The notes beneath the pieces were generated by a model, which worked only from the letters and a program-made list of their open reading frames with translations, did no database searches and was not told the DNA's origin. From the IMG/VR virus record IMGVR_UViG_3300005537_000002, positions 64,001 through 128,000 of that record: 64,000 nucleotides of DNA; one strand, given 5' to 3'. This DNA comes from a virus. A program made the translations under genes and the position numbers. Below are positions 4,749 to 36,270 of this stretch, in pieces. Each line of letters begins with the position of its first letter. The first letter of the stretch is position 1.

Positions 4749-4964
4749 ATGGATGTAAAATCAACCCTTCGCATAGCTTTCCTACTTATTGGTAGGCAAA
4801 TCGCGGCTGAGTTTCTGTCACAGGCAGTTTGTAAGAGACTCGAGCGAGAAGATATACCAGATGACTCGTGGATGTCTGAGAGCCACGAGTATCCATTTCA
4901 CACTATCGTAGCTCAAGCTATGTGCGACGCTTTATTCGATATACAGAGTACCTCGCACGACTAG
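4749..4964 (+). CDS. Hypothetical protein
   Basis: AAAGG RBS; operon packing. Confidence 0.45.
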   Translation: MDVKSTLRIAFLLIGRQIAAEFLSQAVCKRLEREDIPDDSWMSESHEYPFHTIVAQAMCDALFDIQSTSHD

Positions 4965-6184
4965 AACGGAGCTTGTGTTTGAGCGAAAAAAGGAGGGTAC
5001 GACTTTTAGGTATTAGTCTCATAGTAGTGATGGTGCTGTTCATAGTGGTGATGTCGCTACTATTATGGAACTTACTACTCAAACCTACGGAGGTAAAACA
5101 TCATATGACTCTTAATACTATGGGTGGCTATGTATTTCCGGACGACGCAGTTTGCGACGCACCTAGTCAGTACTCCGACGGAAGGGTTATCAATACTCTT
5201 AACGTCGAGTATCTACATGTTGATTCTGGTGGAGCACTTGTAACCCTGACTAGTGGGTGTAACGCGTATAACGACTCGAATGTAGCTTCTGTCAAAGCAC
5301 ACAGCAACAGGCAGTTCGTAACTGTCAGTGGGGATAGTGGTGGGTTTCAAGTACTCATAAGCGATACTCAGCTTACAAACACCTTTATCAGTACGGTACA
5401 AGCATTTCTCTCGAAGATAGGGTTTACCGGAGTTGAGTTGGACTTTGAGGACTTCGGTTCTTGGACTTCCTCTCAGTATGCCAGTTATGTAGCGTTCGTC
5501 AAACGTCTTAGTACTGAGTTGCATAGCACAGGGCACTTACTAGCTATCGACTGCCCAGCGATATCCGACCAAACCTATCAGAGCTACTATCCTCACTGGT
5601 CATATAAAGACTTCGACGGGGTTCAAGTAGAGTTACGCGTGATGGCGTACGACTACGAATACGACCAGGGTGCAGGTAATCCGATAGCGCCTATAGACTG
5701 GATCACCAACATTTGTAAGTGGACTAGGTCTCAAATCACTGATCCTAGTAGGATCACTATCATACTCAACTCTTACGGGTACCACGGAGTGAGAAATAAG
5801 TACGCCGCTAATCGAGATACATACAGCCAGTCAAAAGCCTACTACGGTTTTAATACAGCTTCAAGGGATGCTTCTTCTGGTGAGATGACTTGGTCTGTAG
5901 GGGGCGAGGTCTACTACTATACGGACAGCGAAACGTTGAACCAGAAAGTGACCGCTGTGCTAAACTCTGGTACGGGTATCAACAACATTGCCATCTTCCA
6001 CTTAGGTGGAGGAAACAAGTGGCCAACGGTTACTCCTCCACCTACACCGGTGTCCACACCAACAGTTACGAGTGACGTGTCTCCAGCACTCTCTTCTCTA
6101 CTGAAGTGGATGGAAGCCGAACTACCGAGTTGGTACGCAGCTAACTTCGACTCGACTGGAAAGTATATTGGAGGTAGTCACTAG
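4922..6184 (+). CDS. Membrane-anchored GH18 (chitinase-like) glycoside hydrolase
   Basis: N-terminal TM helix; GFTGVELDFE (DxDxE-like, catalytic E kept); VMAYDY; PIAPIDW; P/T-rich linker. Start uncertain. Confidence 0.8.
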   Translation: MRRFIRYTEYLARLERSLCLSEKRRVRLLGISLIVVMVLFIVVMSLLLWNLLLKPTEVKHHMTLNTMGGYVFPDDAVCDAPSQYSDGRVINTLNVEYLHVDSGGALVTLTSGCNAYNDSNVASVKAHSNRQFVTVSGDSGGFQVLISDTQLTNTFISTVQAFLSKIGFTGVELDFEDFGSWTSSQYASYVAFVKRLSTELHSTGHLLAIDCPAISDQTYQSYYPHWSYKDFDGVQVELRVMAYDYEYDQGAGNPIAPIDWITNICKWTRSQITDPSRITIILNSYGYHGVRNKYAANRDTYSQSKAYYGFNTASRDASSGEMTWSVGGEVYYYTDSETLNQKVTAVLNSGTGINNIAIFHLGGGNKWPTVTPPPTPVSTPTVTSDVSPALSSLLKWMEAELPSWYAANFDSTGKYIGGSH

Positions 6185-6651
6185 TGCCATCAACGTATTA
6201 CGAGGACTATGTAATACCTCCACCATTTACATTACCAGCTAAACAGGTTGGACAGATGACTCTACCGGAAGCGTTATCGATGGCACAGTGTGTAAGCGAC
6301 CCGTACGCTAAGAGGCGTAGGAAGGGGTATAGCATGATCACTGTGCTATATCTGCTGACGTATAGCGTGGTTGCGTTCGACATAGATAGTATAGTTTACT
6401 GGAACATCGAAACGTGGACCTTTCGAGTCGTGCTGTGGATAGCAGTTATGATAGTATGGGCTAACTTCGTTAGCGGAACCCTACGTATACGGCCGACTAG
6501 ACGGCAGGTTGTAGAGATGGCTACGACACTAAGTATGAAAGCAGTCTCGATCTCTAAGCTGGCACGCGGTCGGAAAATCTCTTTCCCAAAGGTTATACCA
6601 AACGAGGATACCACTACCTACTTAAGAGCCATTAAGCGGAAGCTAACGTGA
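6184..6651 (+). CDS. Two-TM membrane protein, possible synthase accessory subunit
   Basis: Two hydrophobic helices; overlaps both neighbouring genes. Confidence 0.5.
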   Translation: MPSTYYEDYVIPPPFTLPAKQVGQMTLPEALSMAQCVSDPYAKRRRKGYSMITVLYLLTYSVVAFDIDSIVYWNIETWTFRVVLWIAVMIVWANFVSGTLRIRPTRRQVVEMATTLSMKAVSISKLARGRKISFPKVIPNEDTTTYLRAIKRKLT

Positions 6652-7994
6652 GATCTGTTTATAAAAGTATTACGTATAGTGCATTGTGGATGGTTACGGC
6701 TGCTATAGCAGCTTCAACTAGGTTTATACAACCGCATCCATTCGATACGCCGTTTCTCGATACGATGAGACACGTTATAGTCTTCTTTGCGTCTATACTA
6801 CTAGCGAAATACTTCTTCTATATGGTAGTAGCTCCATTCTACGACGTAATAGAGAGTCGCAGAGTCGTTACTACGCTTATGGCGGACTACTACCCGTTAG
6901 TGTCAGTGATGATACCTGCCTGGAACGAAGAGGTAGGTCTACTAGGTACGGTCAAGACGCTACTAGACTCCACCTACAGACATGTGGAGCTCGTCATTGT
7001 GAACGATGGTAGCACAGATGGCTCGCACGCAATGATGCTCAACTTCGTCAGTAAGTATAACGAGCAGATGACTGACGTACCCGAGTACAAGCGCATACGT
7101 ATACTCTACCACTACCAACCAAACGGAGGCAAGGGAAGCGCACTAAACACAGCGATCCAACTGTCTCACGGAGCTATACTACTGTCCATTGACGCTGACT
7201 GTCACGTTCACGCCCGCTGTATTGAGGAGTTCGTGAACGCATTCCGTAACCCTAAAGTTATGGCTGCCGTCGGTAACGTGAGGGTAGGCAATACAAAGTC
7301 ACTCGTGGGTACAATCCAGTACCTAGAATATATCTTCGGATTCTACTTTAAGAAAGCGGACAGCTTGCTCAACACCATCTATATTATCGGTGGAGCGGCT
7401 GGTGCATTCCGGCGGGAAGTGTTTCAAGTGATTGGTGGGTATAATACCAAGAACATTACGGAAGACATTGAGCTATCCGTCCGAATACAGGAACAAGGTT
7501 GGAAAATCGTTTACTGTCCTGGAGCACTCGTACTAACTGAGGGAGCGTCTACACTCACAGGCTTGAAGAAGCAACGCTACCGTTGGAAGTACGGTCGGTT
7601 CCAAACGTTTATGCAGCATCGCAACTTGTTCTTCTCGACTGAGCGTAGGCATAACAAGTTGCTGTGCTGGGTGATACTACCGCTAGCGATATTTGGGGAG
7701 GTGCAACTCGGACTTGAGTTACTATTTATCACTATGCTATACGTATTCGCACTCCTATCGGGTGACTTCTCGGCATTTCTGAGTGGTGTATTTGTAGTCT
7801 CTCTCATGTTCGGCGTACAAGCACACGACAGTGGAGAGTTCAACATCAGCACTCTACTGCTAGCACCTATAGGGTGGCTACTATTCTACGTCACCACCTA
7901 CGTCGAGGTGTACGCACTTATCCGGAGTATATGGAATCTAATCCGCAAACGCGACGTACAGTGGCAGAAGTGGAAACGAACCGGTGTACAATGA
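6648..7994 (+). CDS. Processive GT2 glycosyltransferase (PgaC/IcaA/cellulose-synthase-like)
   Basis: IPAWNEE, NDGSTD, GGKGSALN, DAD, TED, QRYRW (QxxRW) and flanking TM helices. Confidence 0.92.
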   Translation: MRSVYKSITYSALWMVTAAIAASTRFIQPHPFDTPFLDTMRHVIVFFASILLAKYFFYMVVAPFYDVIESRRVVTTLMADYYPLVSVMIPAWNEEVGLLGTVKTLLDSTYRHVELVIVNDGSTDGSHAMMLNFVSKYNEQMTDVPEYKRIRILYHYQPNGGKGSALNTAIQLSHGAILLSIDADCHVHARCIEEFVNAFRNPKVMAAVGNVRVGNTKSLVGTIQYLEYIFGFYFKKADSLLNTIYIIGGAAGAFRREVFQVIGGYNTKNITEDIELSVRIQEQGWKIVYCPGALVLTEGASTLTGLKKQRYRWKYGRFQTFMQHRNLFFSTERRHNKLLCWVILPLAIFGEVQLGLELLFITMLYVFALLSGDFSAFLSGVFVVSLMFGVQAHDSGEFNISTLLLAPIGWLLFYVTTYVEVYALIRSIWNLIRKRDVQWQKWKRTGVQ

Positions 7995-8893
7995 CAAACA
8001 AAGAAAAAGGGTTCACTATGGCGGTGTGTATAAATTGTGGAAAAGGACTTTCTCTATGGAACAGACTTGTGAGACAGACCATATGCAGTGAATGTGGTGA
8101 ATACTTTCAGAACGAACGTTATAGGTGGCTGTCTGCGATCGAGAGGGACTTTTCTAGAGGAGGTGTATCCTTAGAGTTGGAGACCCAAATGTATCAACAC
8201 TTCCAAAGTATACATATGCCTGAGTATGAAGGCATCCCTGTCATAGAAAAGATGAGATACTTTAGAGAACTTTCGGAAGTGCAGTGGGGTAATGTACCAA
8301 CCATTCGTATAGATAGGCATCTAGACTCAGATGAGTACGCCTACTTCTCGTTCGAGACTACGTACTATAATAAACAGCTAAGACCCGTCGAGGGTATATT
8401 GGTAGGTACTAACAAGAAGTGCTACTTCCACCCCATATCTGGCGTAGGTGGAGTACATATCAATTGGGGTAATATAAGCCAAGTGAAGGAGGAGTCCGTA
8501 CGAGTATACACCCATCCCAGACCTCTACGAGGTGTTACAGAACAGTTGGTAGTCAAGAGGGTTTTAAGAATCTCCGTATCTGCCAGTTCCGGTGGAGGGG
8601 ATTACTACGTAAGAGACCCGTTTAAGGCTTGTATCTACATCGACACTCTTGTACGTATTTGGAAGAGACAACTAATCATTCGTAGAGAGTTAGGCACATA
8701 CGGAGACGTACCTAATCACGTAAAGTCTGATGTGTATAAACGAGATAAGGGATGCTGTCAACAATGCGGCTACAGTGGGGACTACATCGAGTATGACCAC
8801 ATCATACCTCGGAGTAAGGGAGGGTCGAATACGGTAGATAATATACAACTTCTTTGTAGGAGATGTAATTTGCAAAAGGGAGATAGGCTGTAA
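7991..8893 (+). CDS. HNH endonuclease with an extended N-terminal region
   Basis: RDKGCCQQC...EYDHIIPRSKGGSNTVDNIQLLCRRCN; N-terminal CxxC pairs. Confidence 0.85.
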   Translation: MTNKEKGFTMAVCINCGKGLSLWNRLVRQTICSECGEYFQNERYRWLSAIERDFSRGGVSLELETQMYQHFQSIHMPEYEGIPVIEKMRYFRELSEVQWGNVPTIRIDRHLDSDEYAYFSFETTYYNKQLRPVEGILVGTNKKCYFHPISGVGGVHINWGNISQVKEESVRVYTHPRPLRGVTEQLVVKRVLRISVSASSGGGDYYVRDPFKACIYIDTLVRIWKRQLIIRRELGTYGDVPNHVKSDVYKRDKGCCQQCGYSGDYIEYDHIIPRSKGGSNTVDNIQLLCRRCNLQKGDRL

Positions 8894-8919
8894 CAACCAA
8901 AAAAAAGGAGGCATACGGA

Positions 8920-10167
8920 TTGAGTCCGTATACAGCAACCGTCAAGAAGAGACGGTCACGCAAACTATATACTAAGTACGATGCTATAGTACGGTGGGTA
9001 GTCGTGGCATGTGCTAGCATGTTGTTGAATGCAGCATTATTAGATGTCGCATTATGGATATACCCCTTACAGAGTCTGAGTCAGCTAGTAGTGTGGAATA
9101 CGCTGGTGTCAGCTATCGCTTCGATATGCGGCATGGTAGGGTATCGATTGTGGGTATTGGGGAGATACCGTATGCTAACAGCAGAGGAGTTCGGTAAATG
9201 TCTATCTATACTCACTTTCGAGTCTTTGGTGGACACGATGTTAGCTGTACTAAGCCAGTTCGCTAGTATTATGCTAGTGGGAGACTTATTACCCACTACT
9301 ACTATGAAACTAATTGCGGTTATAGGGACGTTCATCCTGTCCACTGTGCTACTTAAACAATGGATGGGTAAGAAGCCTGTATATGAGTGCATCATGAAAC
9401 CTTCTCGAGCGTCTATACGTAGACAACACTACACGTTGTCAGTCGTAATGGTAGCACAGGACAATGCGGATTATATTCAGCATACTGTACATCAAATGTA
9501 CGAGTCCCTAACGTACATGGTCGATGACTTCGAAGTCATCGTAGTCAACGACGGTAGTGCCGATCATACAGGTGTGCTGTTAGAGGCTATATCTATCATG
9601 ACCCCGCGAGTTAGGGTAGTGAATTACGCCAAACCTCGAGGATACTCTACAGCTTTAGCGACCGGACTCAAACTAGCGTGTAAGGAACTGACATTCATTA
9701 CCTCTTCAGACGACCAGTTCGACATACAGGATCTAGCGTTCTTCCTTCCGTATATGTGTGAGTACGACGCGGTTTTCGGTTACCCCTTCGGCGAGACTGG
9801 CAGTCGTTTCGAGAGATTCTGTACGTGGAGTTGGAGTACGTTAGTCAGTCGGACGTTCGGACTTAACGTAAGAGACGTCGACTGCGAATTCAAACTATTT
9901 AGAACTGACTTCTTTACGGACTATGAACTGACTGTCACTGACTCTCGCTTAGTGTATGTAGACATGTTGTATCAGTTAGCACAGTCGGATAGGTCGTATA
10001 CCGAAATGGGCGTACTACAAACACCAACTGTACTAGAACGTAAGAGAGACACAAGCCTGCTGAGCTTGGTTAAGAACGCGTCTGCACTACGAAAGTATGT
10101 TAAGGAACGGAAAATCAGTAGTTACGGGCACCACCTACACTCGAACGCTGCGATACGTACCTCTTGA
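8920..10167 (+). CDS. GtrA-like membrane domain fused to a GT2 (polyprenol-phosphate glycosyltransferase-like) domain
   Basis: Four N-terminal TM helices; LSVVMVA, FEVIVVNDGSADHT, GYSTALATG, RDVDCEFKLFR. The DxD site reads SSDDQFD. Confidence 0.75.
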   Translation: MSPYTATVKKRRSRKLYTKYDAIVRWVVVACASMLLNAALLDVALWIYPLQSLSQLVVWNTLVSAIASICGMVGYRLWVLGRYRMLTAEEFGKCLSILTFESLVDTMLAVLSQFASIMLVGDLLPTTTMKLIAVIGTFILSTVLLKQWMGKKPVYECIMKPSRASIRRQHYTLSVVMVAQDNADYIQHTVHQMYESLTYMVDDFEVIVVNDGSADHTGVLLEAISIMTPRVRVVNYAKPRGYSTALATGLKLACKELTFITSSDDQFDIQDLAFFLPYMCEYDAVFGYPFGETGSRFERFCTWSWSTLVSRTFGLNVRDVDCEFKLFRTDFFTDYELTVTDSRLVYVDMLYQLAQSDRSYTEMGVLQTPTVLERKRDTSLLSLVKNASALRKYVKERKISSYGHHLHSNAAIRTS

Positions 10168-14289: not shown

Positions 14290-14988
14290 ACCTTGTACGA
14301 AGTGTAGCGCTCCCGAAAGGCAGAAGGGCCAGTCTCTATGCGTAACCTGTCAACGTGAGTACGAGAGGCTGTGGCGAGAGAAAAATAGAGAGAAGATTAA
14401 CCACCAATACAAACAGTGGCGTGCGAATATGACAGAAGGTCAGCGCGAACGTGAAAGAGAATCCGGTAGAAGAGGAGAAGCAAAAGTTCGACAGAAGTTA
14501 CTCGAATACAGACTAGAACACCCGTGCATCGATTGTGGAGAGACTAATCCTATATGTCTACACTTCGATCATGTAACCGGTGAAAAACGTATGGATATCA
14601 CCCACTTACGAACGTACGGGTGGCCAAGCGTAGAAAAGGAACTTCAAAAATGTGTAGTGCGATGTGGGAACTGTCACGTCAAAAGACACTTCCTAACTAA
14701 AGGTACTACAAAGTACGGACCTAGTAAACATCTCTCGAAAGCAGCGAACGCTAGGAGAGATGTGTTTAGGCGCTATCTCCAACTGTGGGGGTGTATAGAC
14801 TGCGGTTTACAAGATGTAGACTGTTTGGAGTTCGATCACGTCTTCGGAGAGAAGTTAGCAGACGTAAGTATACTAATCGACAACGATACCAAAACTGGGA
14901 GGCTACAGTCGACGAAATCGCTAAGTGCGAAGTAGTCTGCGTAAACTGCCACGCTAAACGTACTGAGAGTAGGGGGTATCAATGGTAG
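14279..14988 (+). pseudogene. Tandem double-HNH endonuclease with a frameshift near 14885-14895
   Basis: Two CIDCG...FDHV.GEK modules. The second module's KCEVVCVNCHAKRT is in the -1 frame and ends at 14988, overlapping the pol ATG. Confidence 0.75.
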
Positions 14989-17900
14989 TAGAAACTTCAT
15001 GGGTGGGTTCAGCAGACAGAAGTCTGCTAGCACTATGCAAGTGCTCAACTTGTGGTCTATGCAATCAGAATGACTTCAAACCAGTAATGGGTTACGGAAA
15101 TAGTGGAGCTAGAGTTATATTCGTAGGGGAAGCAGCCGGCCGTAATGAACATATCCAGGGTATCCCGTTTGTAGGAGAGTCCGGTAGGCTCTTGACAGCT
15201 GTGCTCCAAAGGGTACAGCTGTCAGATGGAAGTTACCTGCAAAGAGATGACGTCTACCTTACGAACGCTTGTCTGTGTCGACCAGAAGACAATCGTACAC
15301 CGTCAGCTGCAGAAATCGTGGCTTGCAACGAGCGTTTGAAGGCGGAGATCAAATCTCTTCCTAACCGACACTTGATTGTAGTGTTGGGTAGTAGTGCGAT
15401 CAAGGCTGTAACTGGCAAGCACCAGAGTATGAACGCCATGCACGGTAAGATTGAGTGGAGTGCTGAGTTTCAGTGCTTCATTACGTATACGTGGCACCCA
15501 GCGTACATATTGAGGACTCCGAATGACTTTCCTGACCTTGACTACGTCATGAGTCAGATACCGAGCATTCTGGATACGCCTAAAGGGCCTATCCAATTTC
15601 AGCCGCCGAAGTATATCGTAGAAGACTCCATCGATATGGCGATTAAGCGATTGCTACACTTGCTTGATCACGTCGAAGGTGATGTCGCTTGTGACATCGA
15701 AACGACCAACTTGGAGTTAGCACAGCCAACTAACTTCATTCTCGAGATCGGCTTCTCTTGGGAGGATGGAAAGGCGTACATCTTACCTCACCACATCTTC
15801 AACGACAGTCAAGTGAAGGTAGTACTGATACGCTTCCTGGAAAAGAAGAGTGTGCGGTTTGTATACCACAACGGGATGTTCGACATTGCGTGGTTGCGCT
15901 ACAAGTTGGGAGCTAAACAGGCTTGGATTGGTGCGGACACGATGTTGATGTCTTCACTCTATGATCCAAGAGGTAGAGGCGGTGGAGAAGGAGATGAAGT
16001 GCAGGGGGTTGGAACGACACACGGCCTAAAGCCATTAAGCCGCAAACACTGTCAAGCACCAGCTTGGGAAGATGACATTCATGCGTACCTTCCGAATAAA
16101 GAAGCGAGCTTCGAACTCATACCGGCAGATGTCCGACAGAGGTATATGAGCTTCGACTTGGTGTACACGTTACGGCTCTTTAGGAGACTAACAGAGCTGT
16201 TAGAAAAGGAAGATCCCTCCGCTGAAGGTTACCCAACTCCACTTGAGTGCCACTACAATCTGCTCATACCCGCGGCTAACATGCTAGCGGACATTGAGTC
16301 TCACGGTATCCTCATCGACCGTAAGTACGTGGAGGAACTGAGAGACAAGATGGAAGAGCAGATGCGGGTCTCTAACGAGAAGATCCGAGAGGCCACTAAA
16401 GAATTCTTCAGACGAGACGGTCAAGAGATTACGTTACGTAAGTCGAGAGACGAAGAAGTAACCGAGCGTAAACGTAAGCTCGTAGGTACAGAAGTCCGGT
16501 GGAAAGCACGTAAGCGATATGACAAGTCAGCTAAGGCTTGGGTGCCGGACACTCCTGTACCGGACGGAGTGAGACAGCTGTACGAATACGAGTACATAAC
16601 TAGGGTAGTTAAGAGGTACTATGACGTTGTGCTTAGGGGTGAAGAAGCCGTTGAACACCTAGCGAACGAGTTCAACGTACGCTCTGCTTTACACTTACGA
16701 CACATTCTCTACGACCACTTAGGCTTACCGCCAGTTGAAGGTAAAGAAGTCACTGACAAAGATCAACTAGAACGATACAAGCATGCTCACCTCATTATTC
16801 CACTCATAATGGAATACAAGAACGTGAACCGGCTATATGGCATCTTCATCAAAGGGATGCTAGCTAGATTAGATCCGTATGACCGGTGTCACCCACGATT
16901 TAACATTCATGCAACTCGTACAGGACGATTGTCGAGTTCTAATCCTAATAGTCAGAACATCCCAAGGGATGGACTCATCAAACGTATGTTTACCGTTCCA
17001 AAGGGATACGTTTTTGTCGAAAGTGACTATAGCGGACTTGAGTTCACTGTCATTGCGTGGTACTGTAACGCTCACGTCAATCCAGCATTCCACGATCCGA
17101 CTTTAGCACAGGACGTAGCTGGCGATATCCACCAAGCCTTTGCTGAAGAAGCGTTCGCAGAGCTACTAGCGAAGATCCGAGCGAACAAACGTAGTCTATC
17201 GGCGCTCGAACAGATCATGCGTGAAGAAGTTATCATGACGGAGAAGCGCATCGAGCAGGAGCGAGATAAGCGAACCGATCCGGAGGAAGTAGCTTCACTA
17301 ATGCTGAAGCACGCACGCTTTATGGCAAAATTCTGTACCTTCGGCATTTTGTACGGACGTTCGGCTCACTCGCTAGCGTTTGATGATGATGGTATGCACG
17401 TCTCTCTCGAACAGGCTGAGGAGTACTTACGTAAGTTCTTCGCTAAGTATAATGGCTTGTACAGATTCTTGCAACAACAAACAAAGTACGCACTCGAACG
17501 TGGTTGGCAAGAGATGCCTAGCGGTAGACGAGCGAAGTATCCGTTCATCACTAGAGACAATCGGTCCCAAATTGAACGTCAGAGTTGGAACTCGCCTATT
17601 CAGGGAGGTGCAAGTGACATTTGCTTAGGGGCCTGTATAGACCTACAGAAAGAGCTAGTTGCTAGAGGTTGGGGTTACGTGCTCTTCATTGTACACGACG
17701 CTATCATGATGCAACTAAAAGAGGAGCATATGCATGAAGGTATTGCTCTTATGAAGTCGATCATGGAAGGAGTCACACAGAAACTAAAGTCGCCAGTTGA
17801 CTTTAGGGTTGAGACTAAAGTCGGTAAGAATTGGGGTGACGCAGTCGACATAGAAGTGGAGCACGAACTAGTACACCACCATACTAAAACTGCACACCAC

Positions 17901-18032
17901 GAGATTTCCAGTGACTGTTTCCAGTACGTGTTGTACACGTACACTGACAGCGAAACAGGCTTACCCAAAACGAAACGAGTCCCGCTATGTTCAGTACCGG
18001 TTGAAGACAGACAGGCAACTGTGCTAGCGTAA
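14982..18032 (+). CDS. polA: Family A DNA polymerase with N-terminal family-4 uracil-DNA glycosylase domain and 3'-5' exonuclease
   Basis: UDG: GEAAG, YLTNACLCRP, HPAYILR, four Fe-S Cys. Exonuclease: DIET, HNGMFD, YMSFD. Polymerase motifs A (SDYSGLE), B (RFMAKFCTFGILYG) and C (VHDA). Confidence 0.95.
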   Translation: MVVETSWVGSADRSLLALCKCSTCGLCNQNDFKPVMGYGNSGARVIFVGEAAGRNEHIQGIPFVGESGRLLTAVLQRVQLSDGSYLQRDDVYLTNACLCRPEDNRTPSAAEIVACNERLKAEIKSLPNRHLIVVLGSSAIKAVTGKHQSMNAMHGKIEWSAEFQCFITYTWHPAYILRTPNDFPDLDYVMSQIPSILDTPKGPIQFQPPKYIVEDSIDMAIKRLLHLLDHVEGDVACDIETTNLELAQPTNFILEIGFSWEDGKAYILPHHIFNDSQVKVVLIRFLEKKSVRFVYHNGMFDIAWLRYKLGAKQAWIGADTMLMSSLYDPRGRGGGEGDEVQGVGTTHGLKPLSRKHCQAPAWEDDIHAYLPNKEASFELIPADVRQRYMSFDLVYTLRLFRRLTELLEKEDPSAEGYPTPLECHYNLLIPAANMLADIESHGILIDRKYVEELRDKMEEQMRVSNEKIREATKEFFRRDGQEITLRKSRDEEVTERKRKLVGTEVRWKARKRYDKSAKAWVPDTPVPDGVRQLYEYEYITRVVKRYYDVVLRGEEAVEHLANEFNVRSALHLRHILYDHLGLPPVEGKEVTDKDQLERYKHAHLIIPLIMEYKNVNRLYGIFIKGMLARLDPYDRCHPRFNIHATRTGRLSSSNPNSQNIPRDGLIKRMFTVPKGYVFVESDYSGLEFTVIAWYCNAHVNPAFHDPTLAQDVAGDIHQAFAEEAFAELLAKIRANKRSLSALEQIMREEVIMTEKRIEQERDKRTDPEEVASLMLKHARFMAKFCTFGILYGRSAHSLAFDDDGMHVSLEQAEEYLRKFFAKYNGLYRFLQQQTKYALERGWQEMPSGRRAKYPFITRDNRSQIERQSWNSPIQGGASDICLGACIDLQKELVARGWGYVLFIVHDAIMMQLKEEHMHEGIALMKSIMEGVTQKLKSPVDFRVETKVGKNWGDAVDIEVEHELVHHHTKTAHHEISSDCFQYVLYTYTDSETGLPKTKRVPLCSVPVEDRQATVLA

Positions 18033-28830: not shown

Positions 28831-28838
28831 GTTACCTC

Positions 28839-28868
28839 TTGTTTTCAACCGGTGGAATTTATTATAAT
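28839..28868 (+). promoter_or_regulatory. Sigma70-like early promoter (45 bp identical to 34065-34109)
   Basis: CCTC-TTGTTT-18-TATAAT-ATAAATA. Confidence 0.8.
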
Positions 28869-32569: not shown

Positions 32570-33588
32570 TTTTGGAGGTTGTCACTTTGGACGACAATGT
32601 ATTCATGAGCGGTACCTTCAGTGTCGGTGGTTGGGTCGTGACGACTCTTTCGAACGGCACGGTAGCGTATGTAAGTTCCGGGGTATCAACGGTGTATGTT
32701 ACACATAATGCAGTAGCTAGTACCTATACCCTCGAGTATAGAGACCCAACTAGGTTTCAGTCGAACCGACCACCGGACTTGCCGACATGCAAGTGTGCTA
32801 GATCAGATGGTTGGGAGAATGACCTTACGTTAGACCGACCATCGGTATTGAATGAACATCAGTGGCAGCTATTCAAGGCAACTGGGTCCTTACGTGTGAA
32901 TAGCAAGTTTACGGATGAACTACAACTACAAGTCCTAAAAGGGGAGCCTTGGATCCGACTCATCTCACGAGACGTAGCTGACCGTTACGAGGGTCACTAC
33001 CGAACCCTGTACGTCTGGAAGGACGAGTGGGTGTCCCGACTGTATAGCGAATATGAGCTAGCGTCAGTGATATTCGAGGCACTCGAGGACGAAGTTACGT
33101 TGATGACTGGAGACATTCGTACTACCGGTTGGAGTACTTCGGAGATTGACGGATATATGCCTTTGATGAGGTCGTTGCTGTTAGCACAGGAGACGCTGCC
33201 AGCTTCGGTGTCTCAAAAGCTGTTCGATGACTTACAGCGAGAGGATAGACATACGTTTGAGATAGTGATACCCAGTACGATCTGGCCTGACATTGAGTAT
33301 GCTATCGGTGGAGATGTGCTGCAGCATGCGTTTTCGGTCCGAGTACGCGAGCGAGGTATCATTGGGTTCCTCTGCATACAGCCGGAGGACTGTTACTTAC
33401 CACCTATCGATATGGTTGTGCTTCACTATGTGAGCCTAGCGACCGACGAACTGCGGCACGTATCTACGGGGGTATTCAGTACACATCATAGATATCCACT
33501 TGCAGAACACTACTGGAATAGTCTACTAAACGGCAACCTCAACGCTCCATTTCTGCTCATAGATCGGAAGGACTATTATGAGGAGTAA
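32506..33588 (+). CDS. Hypothetical protein
   Basis: Long ORF; true start probably about 32587. Confidence 0.65.
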   Translation: MGRGACTVLLRRGRRASTSSIVLEVVTLDDNVFMSGTFSVGGWVVTTLSNGTVAYVSSGVSTVYVTHNAVASTYTLEYRDPTRFQSNRPPDLPTCKCARSDGWENDLTLDRPSVLNEHQWQLFKATGSLRVNSKFTDELQLQVLKGEPWIRLISRDVADRYEGHYRTLYVWKDEWVSRLYSEYELASVIFEALEDEVTLMTGDIRTTGWSTSEIDGYMPLMRSLLLAQETLPASVSQKLFDDLQREDRHTFEIVIPSTIWPDIEYAIGGDVLQHAFSVRVRERGIIGFLCIQPEDCYLPPIDMVVLHYVSLATDELRHVSTGVFSTHHRYPLAEHYWNSLLNGNLNAPFLLIDRKDYYEE

Positions 33589-34036
33589 GCGAGCGACTTG
33601 CAGAGACTGTAGGAAACCACTAGACTCCGAGAACACCACCTACTGTAGAGAATGCGCTGCGAAACGAGCCGTAGAGCGACGTAGGAAAGGCCCCTTTGCT
33701 GAGCGGTGGCATGAAATACTCTACGTTATGGAGGATGTGTTACGTAGGGAGCAGTATAGTACGGGTTTAGTCTCTGGAGTTCGCTTCGTAAGATTGAGTC
33801 AGGTTAAGCGTATCGCACTTCTAAGTAGCGTAGCCCTACACTTATGGCCTAGGTCAAAATATGAAAGTCTGCTAGCAGAACTAGTAGATGCTCCAGTAGA
33901 CGGACTGTTGGGAGTCTATAACCATCGAGGACTCTCACGGGAGAGTATAGCTACTTACAGTGTAGGGTTCGAGCGGGACTTGAAGCGTGTCACTCGAGAC
34001 CGGTTAGGTTTCATCATAGTCGATGATACCGACTAG
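33578..34036 (+). CDS. Zinc-finger-containing hypothetical protein
   Basis: CRDC...CREC. Confidence 0.55.
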   Translation: MRSKRATCRDCRKPLDSENTTYCRECAAKRAVERRRKGPFAERWHEILYVMEDVLRREQYSTGLVSGVRFVRLSQVKRIALLSSVALHLWPRSKYESLLAELVDAPVDGLLGVYNHRGLSRESIATYSVGFERDLKRVTRDRLGFIIVDDTD

Positions 34037-34072
34037 GCGGGCGAGTGCGCTTGTTTTTGAGATAGTTACCTC

Positions 34073-34102
34073 TTGTTTTCAACCGGTGGAATTTATTATA
34101 AT
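34073..34102 (+). promoter_or_regulatory. Sigma70-like early promoter
   Basis: 45-bp copy identical to 28831-28875. Confidence 0.8.
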
Positions 34103-34144
34103 ATAAATAATAAATAAAATACTACACCACTAAAGGGAGGGAAA

Positions 34145-34678
34145 GTGCTTACTATTACTCAGTTGGGTGTGGAGACTGACAAACTCTACCTTAGGGAGTT
34201 CGAGACTCACGCTGTCCACTTGAGGAGGAAGTTTGCCGGAAGGGTACTACTTCGTACCGTAAACCTACTAGATCCGGTCGACGTAATAGATGCGTGGTCG
34301 AACGTGCAGAGTGCTGATATCGTCATAGCACACGTGAGTGCGGACTTTCTGTACGTGTTGGACTCATTGACCGATTATCAGTCCGGGCGTAACTTAGTCC
34401 GGGATGAGATTGTGAACAAGCGTAGTACGGGTGCTATGGTGATACTAGTAGCGCTTTCTCACTGCTCTTGGGATGAGGAAGCAGCCTTCGAAGGTTTGTA
34501 TCCCGTACCCAATCTTGCGGGAGTGAAGAAGTTCCCCGGTGGAAGGGATTCTGCTTGGAGAGCTGTCGTGACTGAAGTTGAGCGTACTATCAAGCACTAC
34601 TTGAGGATTTGCTCTAGGTGTGGTACTGATGTACCGACTGGCTTCAAATATTGCTCCGATTGTGGGGCTGAAGTCTAA
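34145..34678 (+). CDS. Divergent TIR-domain protein with C-terminal zinc ribbon
   Basis: DKLYLREFETH..HLRR, ADIVIAHVSADFL, VILVALSHCSW, RDSAW..VV..V match bacterial TIR_2 blocks; ends in CSRC...YCSDCG. Confidence 0.7.
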   Translation: MLTITQLGVETDKLYLREFETHAVHLRRKFAGRVLLRTVNLLDPVDVIDAWSNVQSADIVIAHVSADFLYVLDSLTDYQSGRNLVRDEIVNKRSTGAMVILVALSHCSWDEEAAFEGLYPVPNLAGVKKFPGGRDSAWRAVVTEVERTIKHYLRICSRCGTDVPTGFKYCSDCGAEV

Positions 34679-34694
34679 AAGAAGGGGGTTACAT

Positions 34695-35156
34695 ATGCCA
34701 AAAATTGTGTCAGTGTTCTGTGCTGAGAAGCAGAAGGCAGACCGTAAACTAGCTGATGAGTTGGGGGTTAGTCTAGAGTTGTGTGGTATTCCGTATTACG
34801 ATATGAGTACGTCACTCATAGCAGGTACCGAGTTGCGGACGGAACTGGATCGCTTCTGGAAGGAGTCGACGTTAGGAATACTGATCATGTCAAGTAGCTT
34901 ACTCTCAGAGGCTTCCAGGGAGAGTACTGTCATTGGGAGAATGGTACGGAAGTGCTTTGCAGAGGCTATGCCTAGTGAGAAGGCTAGTGGGAGCTACGCT
35001 GTGATGGCGAGTGACTGTCTCCTGGACTTCTCGGAGCTTTCTTACCTGAGACGGGAACTTACCGCCAGCGGTGACTTTTGGTTGAATGCTAATACTCAAG
35101 AACGGGATGTGTCGTGGAACCTCTTTATGAGAAAGTTGCTATCCGATCTGAGGTAA
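34695..35156 (+). CDS. Second divergent TIR-domain protein
   Basis: KIVSVF..E...D..L..EL, LIAGTE.RTELD, GILIMSSSLL, VMASDCL, RDVSW..F...L. Confidence 0.6.
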   Translation: MPKIVSVFCAEKQKADRKLADELGVSLELCGIPYYDMSTSLIAGTELRTELDRFWKESTLGILIMSSSLLSEASRESTVIGRMVRKCFAEAMPSEKASGSYAVMASDCLLDFSELSYLRRELTASGDFWLNANTQERDVSWNLFMRKLLSDLR

Positions 35157-35511: not shown

Positions 35512-36270
35512 ATGTCGGATAACCCTACTAGCGCGACATTTAGACGACTTAAAGCGTTAATGGCTTTAAGAGACCACCCGGGTACGCCAGAAGAAGCTGC
35601 ATCCGCCGCAGCTAAAGTACAGGAGTTACTAGCTAAGTACAATCTAGAGGTAGCACAGGTGGAGCAGTTCGGTTCTACGGATGACTACACAGAAACACCC
35701 GTAGACCTGGGTGTTCCTTTCGGTGTACCTACCGCTTGGCGTAGACAGCTACTAGCCGAGATAGCCGGCTGTAACTTCTGCCAGACTGTCGGTATTAAGT
35801 ACGCTGCTAGTGCTATGCATCAACCTGCGACTAAGCAACCCCCACAGATCTCTATGCTAGTAGGTCAACCTCATAACATAGAGGTCGTTAAGTACCTCTT
35901 TACGTACTTAACTGGAGCTATCTCCTCTTTGGGGGAAGCGAGTTGGTTAGGCAATAGATATCGTGTCCGCATGCCGAAAATGCAGTACATGGACAGCTTC
36001 TACAAAGGAGCTGTATTAACTGTTGCGCGTCGGTTGAGGAGTCAGCAGTCAGTTACTAGCTCTGCTGACAGAAACATGCAAGCGTTGATGGTCGTGAAGG
36101 ACCAAGCTCTTGCGACCGCAGTCAAAAAGTTTCACCCGAAATTGGTTGCTGGACCAATAACTAATGCAACCAGTGCGGACGCTTTCAATGCCGGTGTACA
36201 GGCCGGCAACCGTATACAGATTAACAAAGGCCTAAGCGGAGCTACTCCGAAACCAAAGCAACTGAATTAA
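35512..36270 (+). CDS. DUF2786-domain protein
   Basis: RRLKALMAL..HPGTPEEAASAAAKVQELLAKYNL; C-terminal F.AG..AG. Confidence 0.8.
   Translation: MSDNPTSATFRRLKALMALRDHPGTPEEAASAAAKVQELLAKYNLEVAQVEQFGSTDDYTETPVDLGVPFGVPTAWRRQLLAEIAGCNFCQTVGIKYAASAMHQPATKQPPQISMLVGQPHNIEVVKYLFTYLTGAISSLGEASWLGNRYRVRMPKMQYMDSFYKGAVLTVARRLRSQQSVTSSADRNMQALMVVKDQALATAVKKFHPKLVAGPITNATSADAFNAGVQAGNRIQINKGLSGATPKPKQLN

Follow-up and report, generated by a model that had tools for sequence, protein, structure and literature searches.

A split pair of divergent TIR-fold domains in a phage genome as a candidate mimic acting on host TIR-based immunity

Why would a phage carry two adjacent genes for TIR domains, and on which side of the conflict between virus and host would their products act? 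TIR domains are a common core of bacterial, plant and animal innate immunity, where they function by ordered self-assembly, and the known phage counters to TIR systems are of two kinds, sponges for the signal (Tad1, Tad2 and Acb2) and small, unrelated proteins that block the protein ThsB (Tad3-7). The question is raised here by a stretch of 64,000 nucleotides, the window, which covers bases 64001-128000 of the 177,637-bp virus record IMGVR_UViG_3300005537_000002 of IMG/VR, the record of a large soil phage, with direct terminal repeats. A first inspection of its letters (hereafter, the sequence-only reading) had placed tandem TIR-domain genes at positions 34145 to 35156 and had seen in them candidate immune decoys or signal jammers. 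Two co-directional open reading frames (ORFs) are indeed found there, which we call ORF1 and ORF2. On the combined evidence of our analysis we favour, tentatively, a reading where this pair encodes a TIR-domain mimic that would interfere with the TIR-based immunity of the host.

The presence of a TIR fold in ORF1 is not visible to routine domain searches. Pfam finds in this protein the zinc ribbon alone, with no TIR match at E<=1, and phmmer searches of PDB sequences with either ORF return only zinc-ribbon noise, as a profile of the N-terminal domain of ORF1 (D1) returns no TIR match among the same PDB sequences. The fold is recovered from structure prediction and profile comparison. An AlphaFold2 model of ORF1, for which the input alignment consisted of the 14 proteins found by phmmer with residues 1-151, reached a predicted local distance difference test score (pLDDT) of 93.4 and a predicted template-modelling score (pTM) of 0.87. 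Its best structural match in VIA-align is the TIR domain of RPS4 (Z 13.5, root-mean-square deviation 2.4, 132 residues), followed by RPP1, a cryptic TIR, PdTIR, AbTIR, MAL, MyD88, Cat1 and SARM1 at Z 10-12, and TIR entries fill most of the top dozen rows. Foldseek against the PDB places the TIR domain of RRS1 first, with a weak E of 1.8e-3 and amid generic flavodoxin-like folds, and against the viral models of BFVD it gives no match at E<=1e-3. The profile of the D1 family aligns over 129 columns with seven TIR- or TIR_2-positive proteins (hhalign 99.6%, E 2.1e-24). Moreover, the PADLOC ThsB model PDLC00420 matches ORF1 at 19.5 bits (E 1.1e-4), fused relatives of the protein at 40-46 bits and relatives of D1 down to E 1.2e-12, PADLOC ThsB models being ones that match general TIR proteins too. 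ORF1 also aligns directly with several TIR repeats of a bacterial LRR-Roc-COR-TIRx4 protein, and phmmer matches it directly to TIR repeats of two multi-TIR proteins, P0009 and P0011. According to these models and profiles, ORF1 consists of a TIR-fold domain with a zinc ribbon at its C-terminus, so that both features named by the sequence-only reading are borne out.

The assignment of ORF2 follows similar lines with lower scores. The Pfam TIR_2 model (PF13676) gives it 16.7 bits, below the cut-off of 28, and with no Pfam TIR match in ORF1 and a sub-threshold one in ORF2, standard annotation overlooks both domains. The N-terminal half of ORF2, from betaA to betaC and with the glycine of the loop between betaB and alphaB (BB loop, Gly44), is canonical, and its C-terminal half has diverged. 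In hhalign (66%, E 5.5e-5) the whole length of ORF2 is collinear with the TIR_2 domain at the C-terminus of the fused relatives, and the family of this second domain (D2) aligns with the seven TIR- or TIR_2-positive proteins at hhalign 99.3% (E 4.6e-20). A joint profile of ORF2 and the fused C-terminal domains finds TIR proteins among 5.8 billion sequences with E down to 2e-7, and it finds the solved proteins AbTir, BtpA/TcpB and PdTIR with E from 1.9e-4 to 3.5e-3, these matches to solved TIRs spanning betaA-betaC only and ending before the catalytic helix. The AlphaFold2 model of ORF2 is of moderate confidence (pLDDT 68.9); its ten best chains in Foldseek are all bacterial TIRs (E 7e-5 to 8e-4). 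In VIA-align a flavoprotein (Z 13.5) ties with the RRS1 TIR chain 4c6t_A (Z 12.9), and because of this tie the fold of ORF2 is less certain than that of ORF1. The ThsB model PDLC00420 finds nothing in ORF2. From its collinearity, profile matches and modelled structure, ORF2 is a second TIR-fold domain, less secure than ORF1 but consistent, and the earlier claim of two TIR proteins holds also here, if more weakly. Foldseek, which the sequence-only reading had proposed as a check, ranks a TIR first for ORF1 and gives TIRs in all of the top ten places for ORF2.

How the two domains belong together is best seen from their relatives. An exhaustive phmmer search with residues 1-151 of ORF1 recovered 14 proteins among 1.84 billion representatives, the window protein included, and the family is thus a rare one. 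Five of the 13 others are single proteins of 349-375 aa, wherein D1, the zinc ribbon, a linker of 20-40 residues rich in P/Q/S/T and a TIR_2 domain follow in this order, and in three of these five the TIR_2 domain passes the Pfam cut-off of 28 (33-37.6 bits). Other members consist of D1 plus ribbon, or of D1 alone, and 10 of 12 members of the family retain the ribbon. Because five relatives are fused and ORF2 is collinear with their C-terminal domain, the window pair can be regarded as the split form of one two-domain protein, and the fused sequences suggest that ORF1 and ORF2 probably act as a heterodimer. The closest relative of ORF1, P0003, is 47% identical, with the next gene 13 nt downstream. 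The genes downstream of two other members, P0006 and P0008, are not TIR-like, and the existence of such single-domain members without a downstream TIR gene indicates that the second TIR domain is dispensable in some lineages.

D1 and D2 match each other in hhalign with E 3e-7, each being nearer to bacterial TIRs than to the other, so that the pair is no recent internal duplication. BLASTP gives no alignment between ORF1 and ORF2 and nothing significant between ORF2 and single fused proteins, so both relationships are visible by profiles only. Other searches were sparse in results: word-index protein searches with the two ORFs led back to the proteins of the window itself and to no others, a zinc-ribbon fragment was all that blastn and tblastn recovered from 50,697 phage records, and neither PHROGs nor NCBIfam holds a family for ORF1 or ORF2. 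A search for related loci gave no viral contigs, no genome contigs and, among metagenome contigs, only three short ones.

Whether the pair is catalytic is the point where our results depart from the sequence-only reading, which had seen the catalytic Glu as perhaps kept in ORF1 (RDEIV) and apparently lost from ORF2 (VIGRMV), and had proposed, as one of two options, an active/inactive pair. The alignment register in this region is ambiguous. For ORF1, the canonical Glu corresponds to L84 in hhalign, in a column of low confidence, and to V85 or E88 in BLAST, depending on which of two TIR repeats of P0009 is compared; for ORF2, MAFFT sets it on T78, with E76 two residues before. No alignment fixes the Glu, and there are candidates in both domains, E88 in ORF1 and E76 in ORF2, so that neither the contrast between the two ORFs nor the pair of opposites derived from it is supported in that form. 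Between betaC and betaD, no acidic position is shared by all members of either the D1 or the D2 family. The BB loop of D1 is around five residues shorter than usual and lacks its Gly, and D2 keeps the invariant G44 in the canonical position. The two proteins linked to Acb2/Tad1 genes, discussed below, carry no Glu at either candidate position: the residue is Ala in D1 and Asn or Asp in D2.

These same positions bear on a first rival explanation, an active TIR enzyme that cleaves or cyclises NAD+ or remodels immune signals of the ADP-ribose (ADPR) type, and that would in this manner jam or destroy alarm nucleotides, or alter NAD metabolism, against the host. There are precedents among pathogens, since the TIR effectors AbTir, BtpA and HopAM1 consume NAD and act in plant or animal cells. 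In ORF1, E88 lies in the R-D-E-I-V helix and one BLAST register (high-scoring pair 1411-1508) sets it at the Glu of W-x3-E, against the L84 of hhalign and the V85 of the second BLAST register. Among the 12 members, eight have Glu in the column of E88 and four have Ala, although an acidic residue stands at D87 or E88 in all of them. For D2, the column of E76 reads E, E, E, N, N, D across six members, three of them thus without Glu; it is E in both fused relatives that have an aromatic residue three positions upstream, and in P0005 this equivalent Glu occurs as W-G-D-E, akin to the W-G-H-E of canonical TIRs. In active TIRs the catalytic Glu of helix alphaC usually follows an aromatic residue by 3-4 positions; ORF1 has Leu in place of this aromatic residue and ORF2 lacks it, and the absence of the BB-loop Gly in D1 likewise counts against an enzyme. 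We consider an enzymatic role unlikely, and what keeps it among the candidates is the presence of both E88 and E76 in the window pair.

Sequence comparisons suggest that D1 and D2 derive from bacterial subfamilies of immune type, namely ThsB-like stand-alone TIRs and the TIR modules of STAND/NLR-like proteins. Bacterial ThsB-type TIRs and STAND/NLR-like TIR modules share with the phage pair the A-D-I-V at betaC, the (R)-P-C-x-W after betaD and the D-x-A-W of the last helix, and the residues of D1 that are invariant in a 12-member alignment are A57, D58, C107, W109 and W138. Compared with bacterial TIRs, the phage pair stands apart by its scores below the Pfam threshold, the absence of an invariant Glu and of a linked ThsA, and its fused or split two-TIR architecture. 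Bacterial proteins of around 190 aa with a TIR domain and a zinc ribbon exist as well, a language-model neighbour that we take as a lead only. Several bacterial relatives are of interest in themselves. The metagenomic proteins P0009 and P0011 are giant bacterial proteins with arrays of the TIR subfamily of the phage pair, one of them an LRR-Roc-COR protein with four TIR_2 stretches (1674 aa) and the other (1921 aa) a poly-gamma-glutamate hydrolase domain joined to six such stretches. On a further contig (L016:1080-5564), the canonical stand-alone TIR protein P0020, with 212.7 bits to PDLC00420, directly follows a 1266-aa STAND gene that encodes a caspase (Peptidase_C14)-NB-ARC-TPR protein; this locus is likely a bacterial conflict system of the TIR subfamily ancestral to the phage domains.

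A second rival explanation starts from the occurrence of tandem TIR genes and multi-TIR proteins of this same subfamily in bacteria. The pair would then be a defence or exclusion module borne by the phage, a TIR sensor/effector pair directed at competing phages or expressed from a prophage. The closest profile is in fact the PADLOC ThsB model, some relatives lie near HTH_3 genes, and Thoeris systems with two ThsB proteins have been described (PMC13728456). However, an effector is linked to the TIR genes in none of the contexts: the ORFs between 31475 and 38000 contain no effector-type Pfam domain and no ThsA-type neighbour (SIR2/SLOG, Macro/TM or other), and the 177.6-kb genome shows neither a SIR2_2 domain nor a further TIR_2 match. 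The catalytic motif is unconserved, and the setting is that of a phage genome with direct terminal repeats, all ORFs of the window longer than 200 aa except one lying on the + strand and the TIR pair sitting among small head-of-operon genes. The longer contigs with relatives look phage-like too, with runs of small co-directional ORFs, an NrS-1-type polymerase and, in one case, the record of a viral operational taxonomic unit. Moreover, ORF1 is the only protein common to the window and to the relatives' contigs examined, and it therefore fits a mobile accessory gene. A defence module of this kind seems to us quite unlikely.

The main functional clue is a linkage with the Acb2/Tad1 family, which rests on one cassette type. 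On contigs L010/L011 and on contig L012, of which the fused TIR proteins are 47% identical, the fused gene lies behind a divergent intergenic region, as the first of four co-directional genes that make up the same cassette (Table 1). The last gene of this cassette encodes an Acb2_Tad1_hairpin protein (PF24729, 60.1 and 49.1 bits for a cut-off of 27), which belongs to phrog_1454 and is 80-86 aa long. Neither Pfam nor PHROGs matches the second and third genes (products of 144/149 aa and 143/135 aa), which may also be candidates for a role against defence. As sponges, the phage proteins Acb2 and Tad1 take up the signals of the cyclic-oligonucleotide-based system CBASS and of Thoeris (PMC10680739, PMC13728456).

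This cassette, where the fused gene and an Acb2/Tad1-family gene occur together in two phages, speaks as well for a third rival explanation, in which degenerate TIR pockets without catalysis would sequester NAD-derived signals, beside or instead of sponges of the Acb2/Tad1 type. TIR active sites bind products of the ADPR type, and the TIR fold is retained in the family while the catalytic motif is unconserved. The known sponges, however, are small homo-oligomers with symmetric pockets, very different from a hetero two-domain unit with a zinc ribbon, and a TIR-fold sponge was not found in the literature searched. We see such a role as improbable.

The TIR mimic is the reading that we favour because the catalytic motif is weakly constrained across the family, no effector accompanies the pair, the family is spread among unrelated phages and the fused form shares a cassette with a sponge gene. 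Both ORFs are phage-encoded and contain only TIR domains and a zinc ribbon, as would an immune-domain mimic of the type of the phage protein pCARD. As to the anti-defence role that the sequence-only reading had put forward, some support comes from the occurrence of the family mostly on phage-like contigs, the fused forms and the Acb2/Tad1 cassette in two phages. In the mechanism that we propose, the TIR pair would be made at the head of its transcription unit, and its two halves, as in the fused forms, would probably pair as a heterodimer. This unit would bind the TIR-domain immune proteins of the host through TIR-TIR contacts, and would so block the ordered self-assembly that is needed for NAD-derived alarm signals or for NAD depletion. 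A more specific version, which we regard as somewhat doubtful, would make of the pair the first phage anti-defence protein with a TIR fold: a two-TIR cap, one TIR face of which docks on the host TIR while the domain with the truncated BB loop cannot pass the assembly on, so that the formation of a filament or of a dimer of dimers would end before any signal.

Several observations weigh against the mimic. Each domain of the window pair retains a possible catalytic Glu (E88 and E76, respectively). The anti-defence linkage consists of one cassette type in two related phages, and the genome of the window has no Acb2/Tad1 gene. The cassettes of L010 and L012 lie near HTH_3 genes, and temperate phages keep their own exclusion genes near genes of this kind. 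Another relative, P0012 (L014:1006-3729), is located between a gene whose 197-aa product weakly matches Nuc_deoxyri_tr2 and, in convergent orientation, a gene for a 395-aa TIR_2-HAMP protein, and this locus may be a TIR-rich or defence context of bacteria rather than of a phage. Finally, the model of ORF2, itself moderately confident, was built from an input alignment that held true TIR proteins.

Among known systems, the best solved-structure matches of the ORF2 family, both by profile and by Foldseek, are BtpA/TcpB, AbTir and PdTIR. These proteins keep the W-x3-E motif and are NADases, whereas the ORF2 match stops before the catalytic helix. The TIR effectors of bacterial pathogens are cases of a parasite's TIR domain used against the TIR-based immunity of its host. 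A closer parallel in strategy is pCARD, the CARD-only protein of Acinetobacter phage 133, which inhibits CARD-dependent bacterial defence (PMC10312443). In both, the phage gene is made only of an immune adaptor domain taken over from bacterial defence proteins; the TIR pair would disturb the homotypic contacts of the defence system, as pCARD is shown to do. However, pCARD is a death-fold CARD tested by plaque assay and gasdermin cleavage, and the phage pair consists of two different TIRs and a ribbon known from sequence. As for the proposed target, the phage proteins Tad3-Tad7 inhibit Thoeris by binding the TIR protein ThsB (PMC13728456), and thus act on ThsB rather than on the signal, as proposed for the TIR pair. 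Tad3-Tad7 are described as blocking the active site of ThsB by helices or loops, and not as TIR folds (PMC13728456). The Acb2/Tad1 proteins (PF24729) are neighbours of the family in the cassette, with an unrelated fold. No paper on a phage TIR decoy or a phage anti-defence protein of TIR fold was found, a provisional result as few subscription journals were covered; a giant-virus preprint proposes an anti-defence role for a viral TIR-nuclease (10.64898/2026.10.11.758280). What is new here is the fused or split two-TIR architecture, together with the cassette context of the Acb2/Tad1 family.

The position of the pair in the window, with the features collected in Table 1, raises the additional question of its expression. 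Since a terminator-like hairpin and a promoter-like motif lie directly upstream, ORF1 can be taken as the first gene of its unit. Chance alone would give 0.05 copies of the motif CTTGTTT-N18-TATAAT in the window, where 13 are present, all but one on the + strand; apart from those at 28838 and 34072 the 11 other copies lie between 10163 and 63033. The unit headed by ORF1 extends to around 38.0 kb, the position of the next copy. From the sequence-only reading, which had described the pair as first in a strong early operon, the place at the head of the unit is retained, but the terms "early" and "strong" would derive from the sigma-70-like promoter consensus alone. Among sequencing runs, the sequence was found only in the probable source DNA sample and in no RNA sample. 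The listed frame of ORF2 opens at 34620 and runs over the last 59 nt of ORF1; translation likely begins at the ATG at 34695, 16 nt past the TAA of ORF1. The two closely spaced genes are possibly coupled in translation. A programmed frameshift that would fuse ORF1 to ORF2 was set aside, as it would destroy the conserved second CxxC of the zinc ribbon.

Table 1. Coordinates of the TIR gene pair, its domains and expression signals in the window, and of the cassettes headed by fused relatives
Feature	Position	Strand	Description	Basis
Terminator-like hairpin and T-run	34034-34053	+	would close the upstream transcription unit	consensus match only
Promoter-like motif CTTGTTT-N18-TATAAT	34072-34102	+	31-mer identical to the copy at 28838-28868	
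Shine-Dalgarno-like AAAGGGAGGG	34132-34141	+	precedes the GTG of ORF1	read from the sequence
ORF1	34145-34678	+	177 aa, GTG start, TAA stop; Shine-Dalgarno-like AAAGGGAGGG ahead	
D1	34145-34600	+	ORF1 residues 1-152, predicted divergent TIR fold with shortened betaB-alphaB (BB) loop	
Zinc ribbon CxxC-N11-CxxC	34610-34678	+	ORF1 residues 156-177	PF13240, 27.9 bits, cut-off 25
Shine-Dalgarno-like AGAAGGGGG	34680-34688	+	precedes the ATG of ORF2	read from the sequence
ORF2	34695-35156	+	153 aa, predicted second TIR-fold domain (D2)	
Four-gene cassette	L010:8001-10269; L011:8001-10269; L012:3202-5508			

The neighbouring genes deserve a brief description. Just upstream of ORF1, a 152-aa ORF (33578-34036) has an N-terminal CxxC-N14-CxxC and a weak match to an endonuclease VII PHROG (E 8e-4). 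A 153-aa gene occupies the corresponding place on the contig of P0003, which suggests that this contig comes from a related phage sharing the gene order. Two genes downstream of the TIR pair, positions 35512-36270 encode a 252-aa DUF2786/DUF7168 protein (phrog_421, E 4e-35).

Elsewhere in the window, a 524-aa fusion of a glutamine amidotransferase and QueC (474-2048; QueC 171.5 bits) suggests, from its sequence, 7-deazaguanine modification of the phage DNA. At 4922-10167, two genes for family-2 glycosyltransferases, one with weak matches to chitin and cellulose synthases, are clustered with a GH18 glycosyl hydrolase-like gene, an unusual cargo for a phage. A 1016-aa protein (14982-18032) joins a domain of the uracil-DNA-glycosylase superfamily, a 3'-5' exonuclease and a family A DNA polymerase.

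If the reading of the pair as a TIR mimic is true, it would represent a natural dominant-negative TIR, useful for studying how bacterial TIRs assemble, and a tool to switch off TIR-based defences in laboratory strains. The fused and split forms offer in this regard a ready comparison of which surfaces matter. Were the pair enzymatic instead, a NAD-derived signal made by a phage, or a TIR that degrades such signals, would also be new. As a mimic, it would add to pCARD a second example of an immune adaptor domain copied by phages, and the strategy of "TIR against TIR" followed by pathogens of animals would extend to bacteria and their phages.

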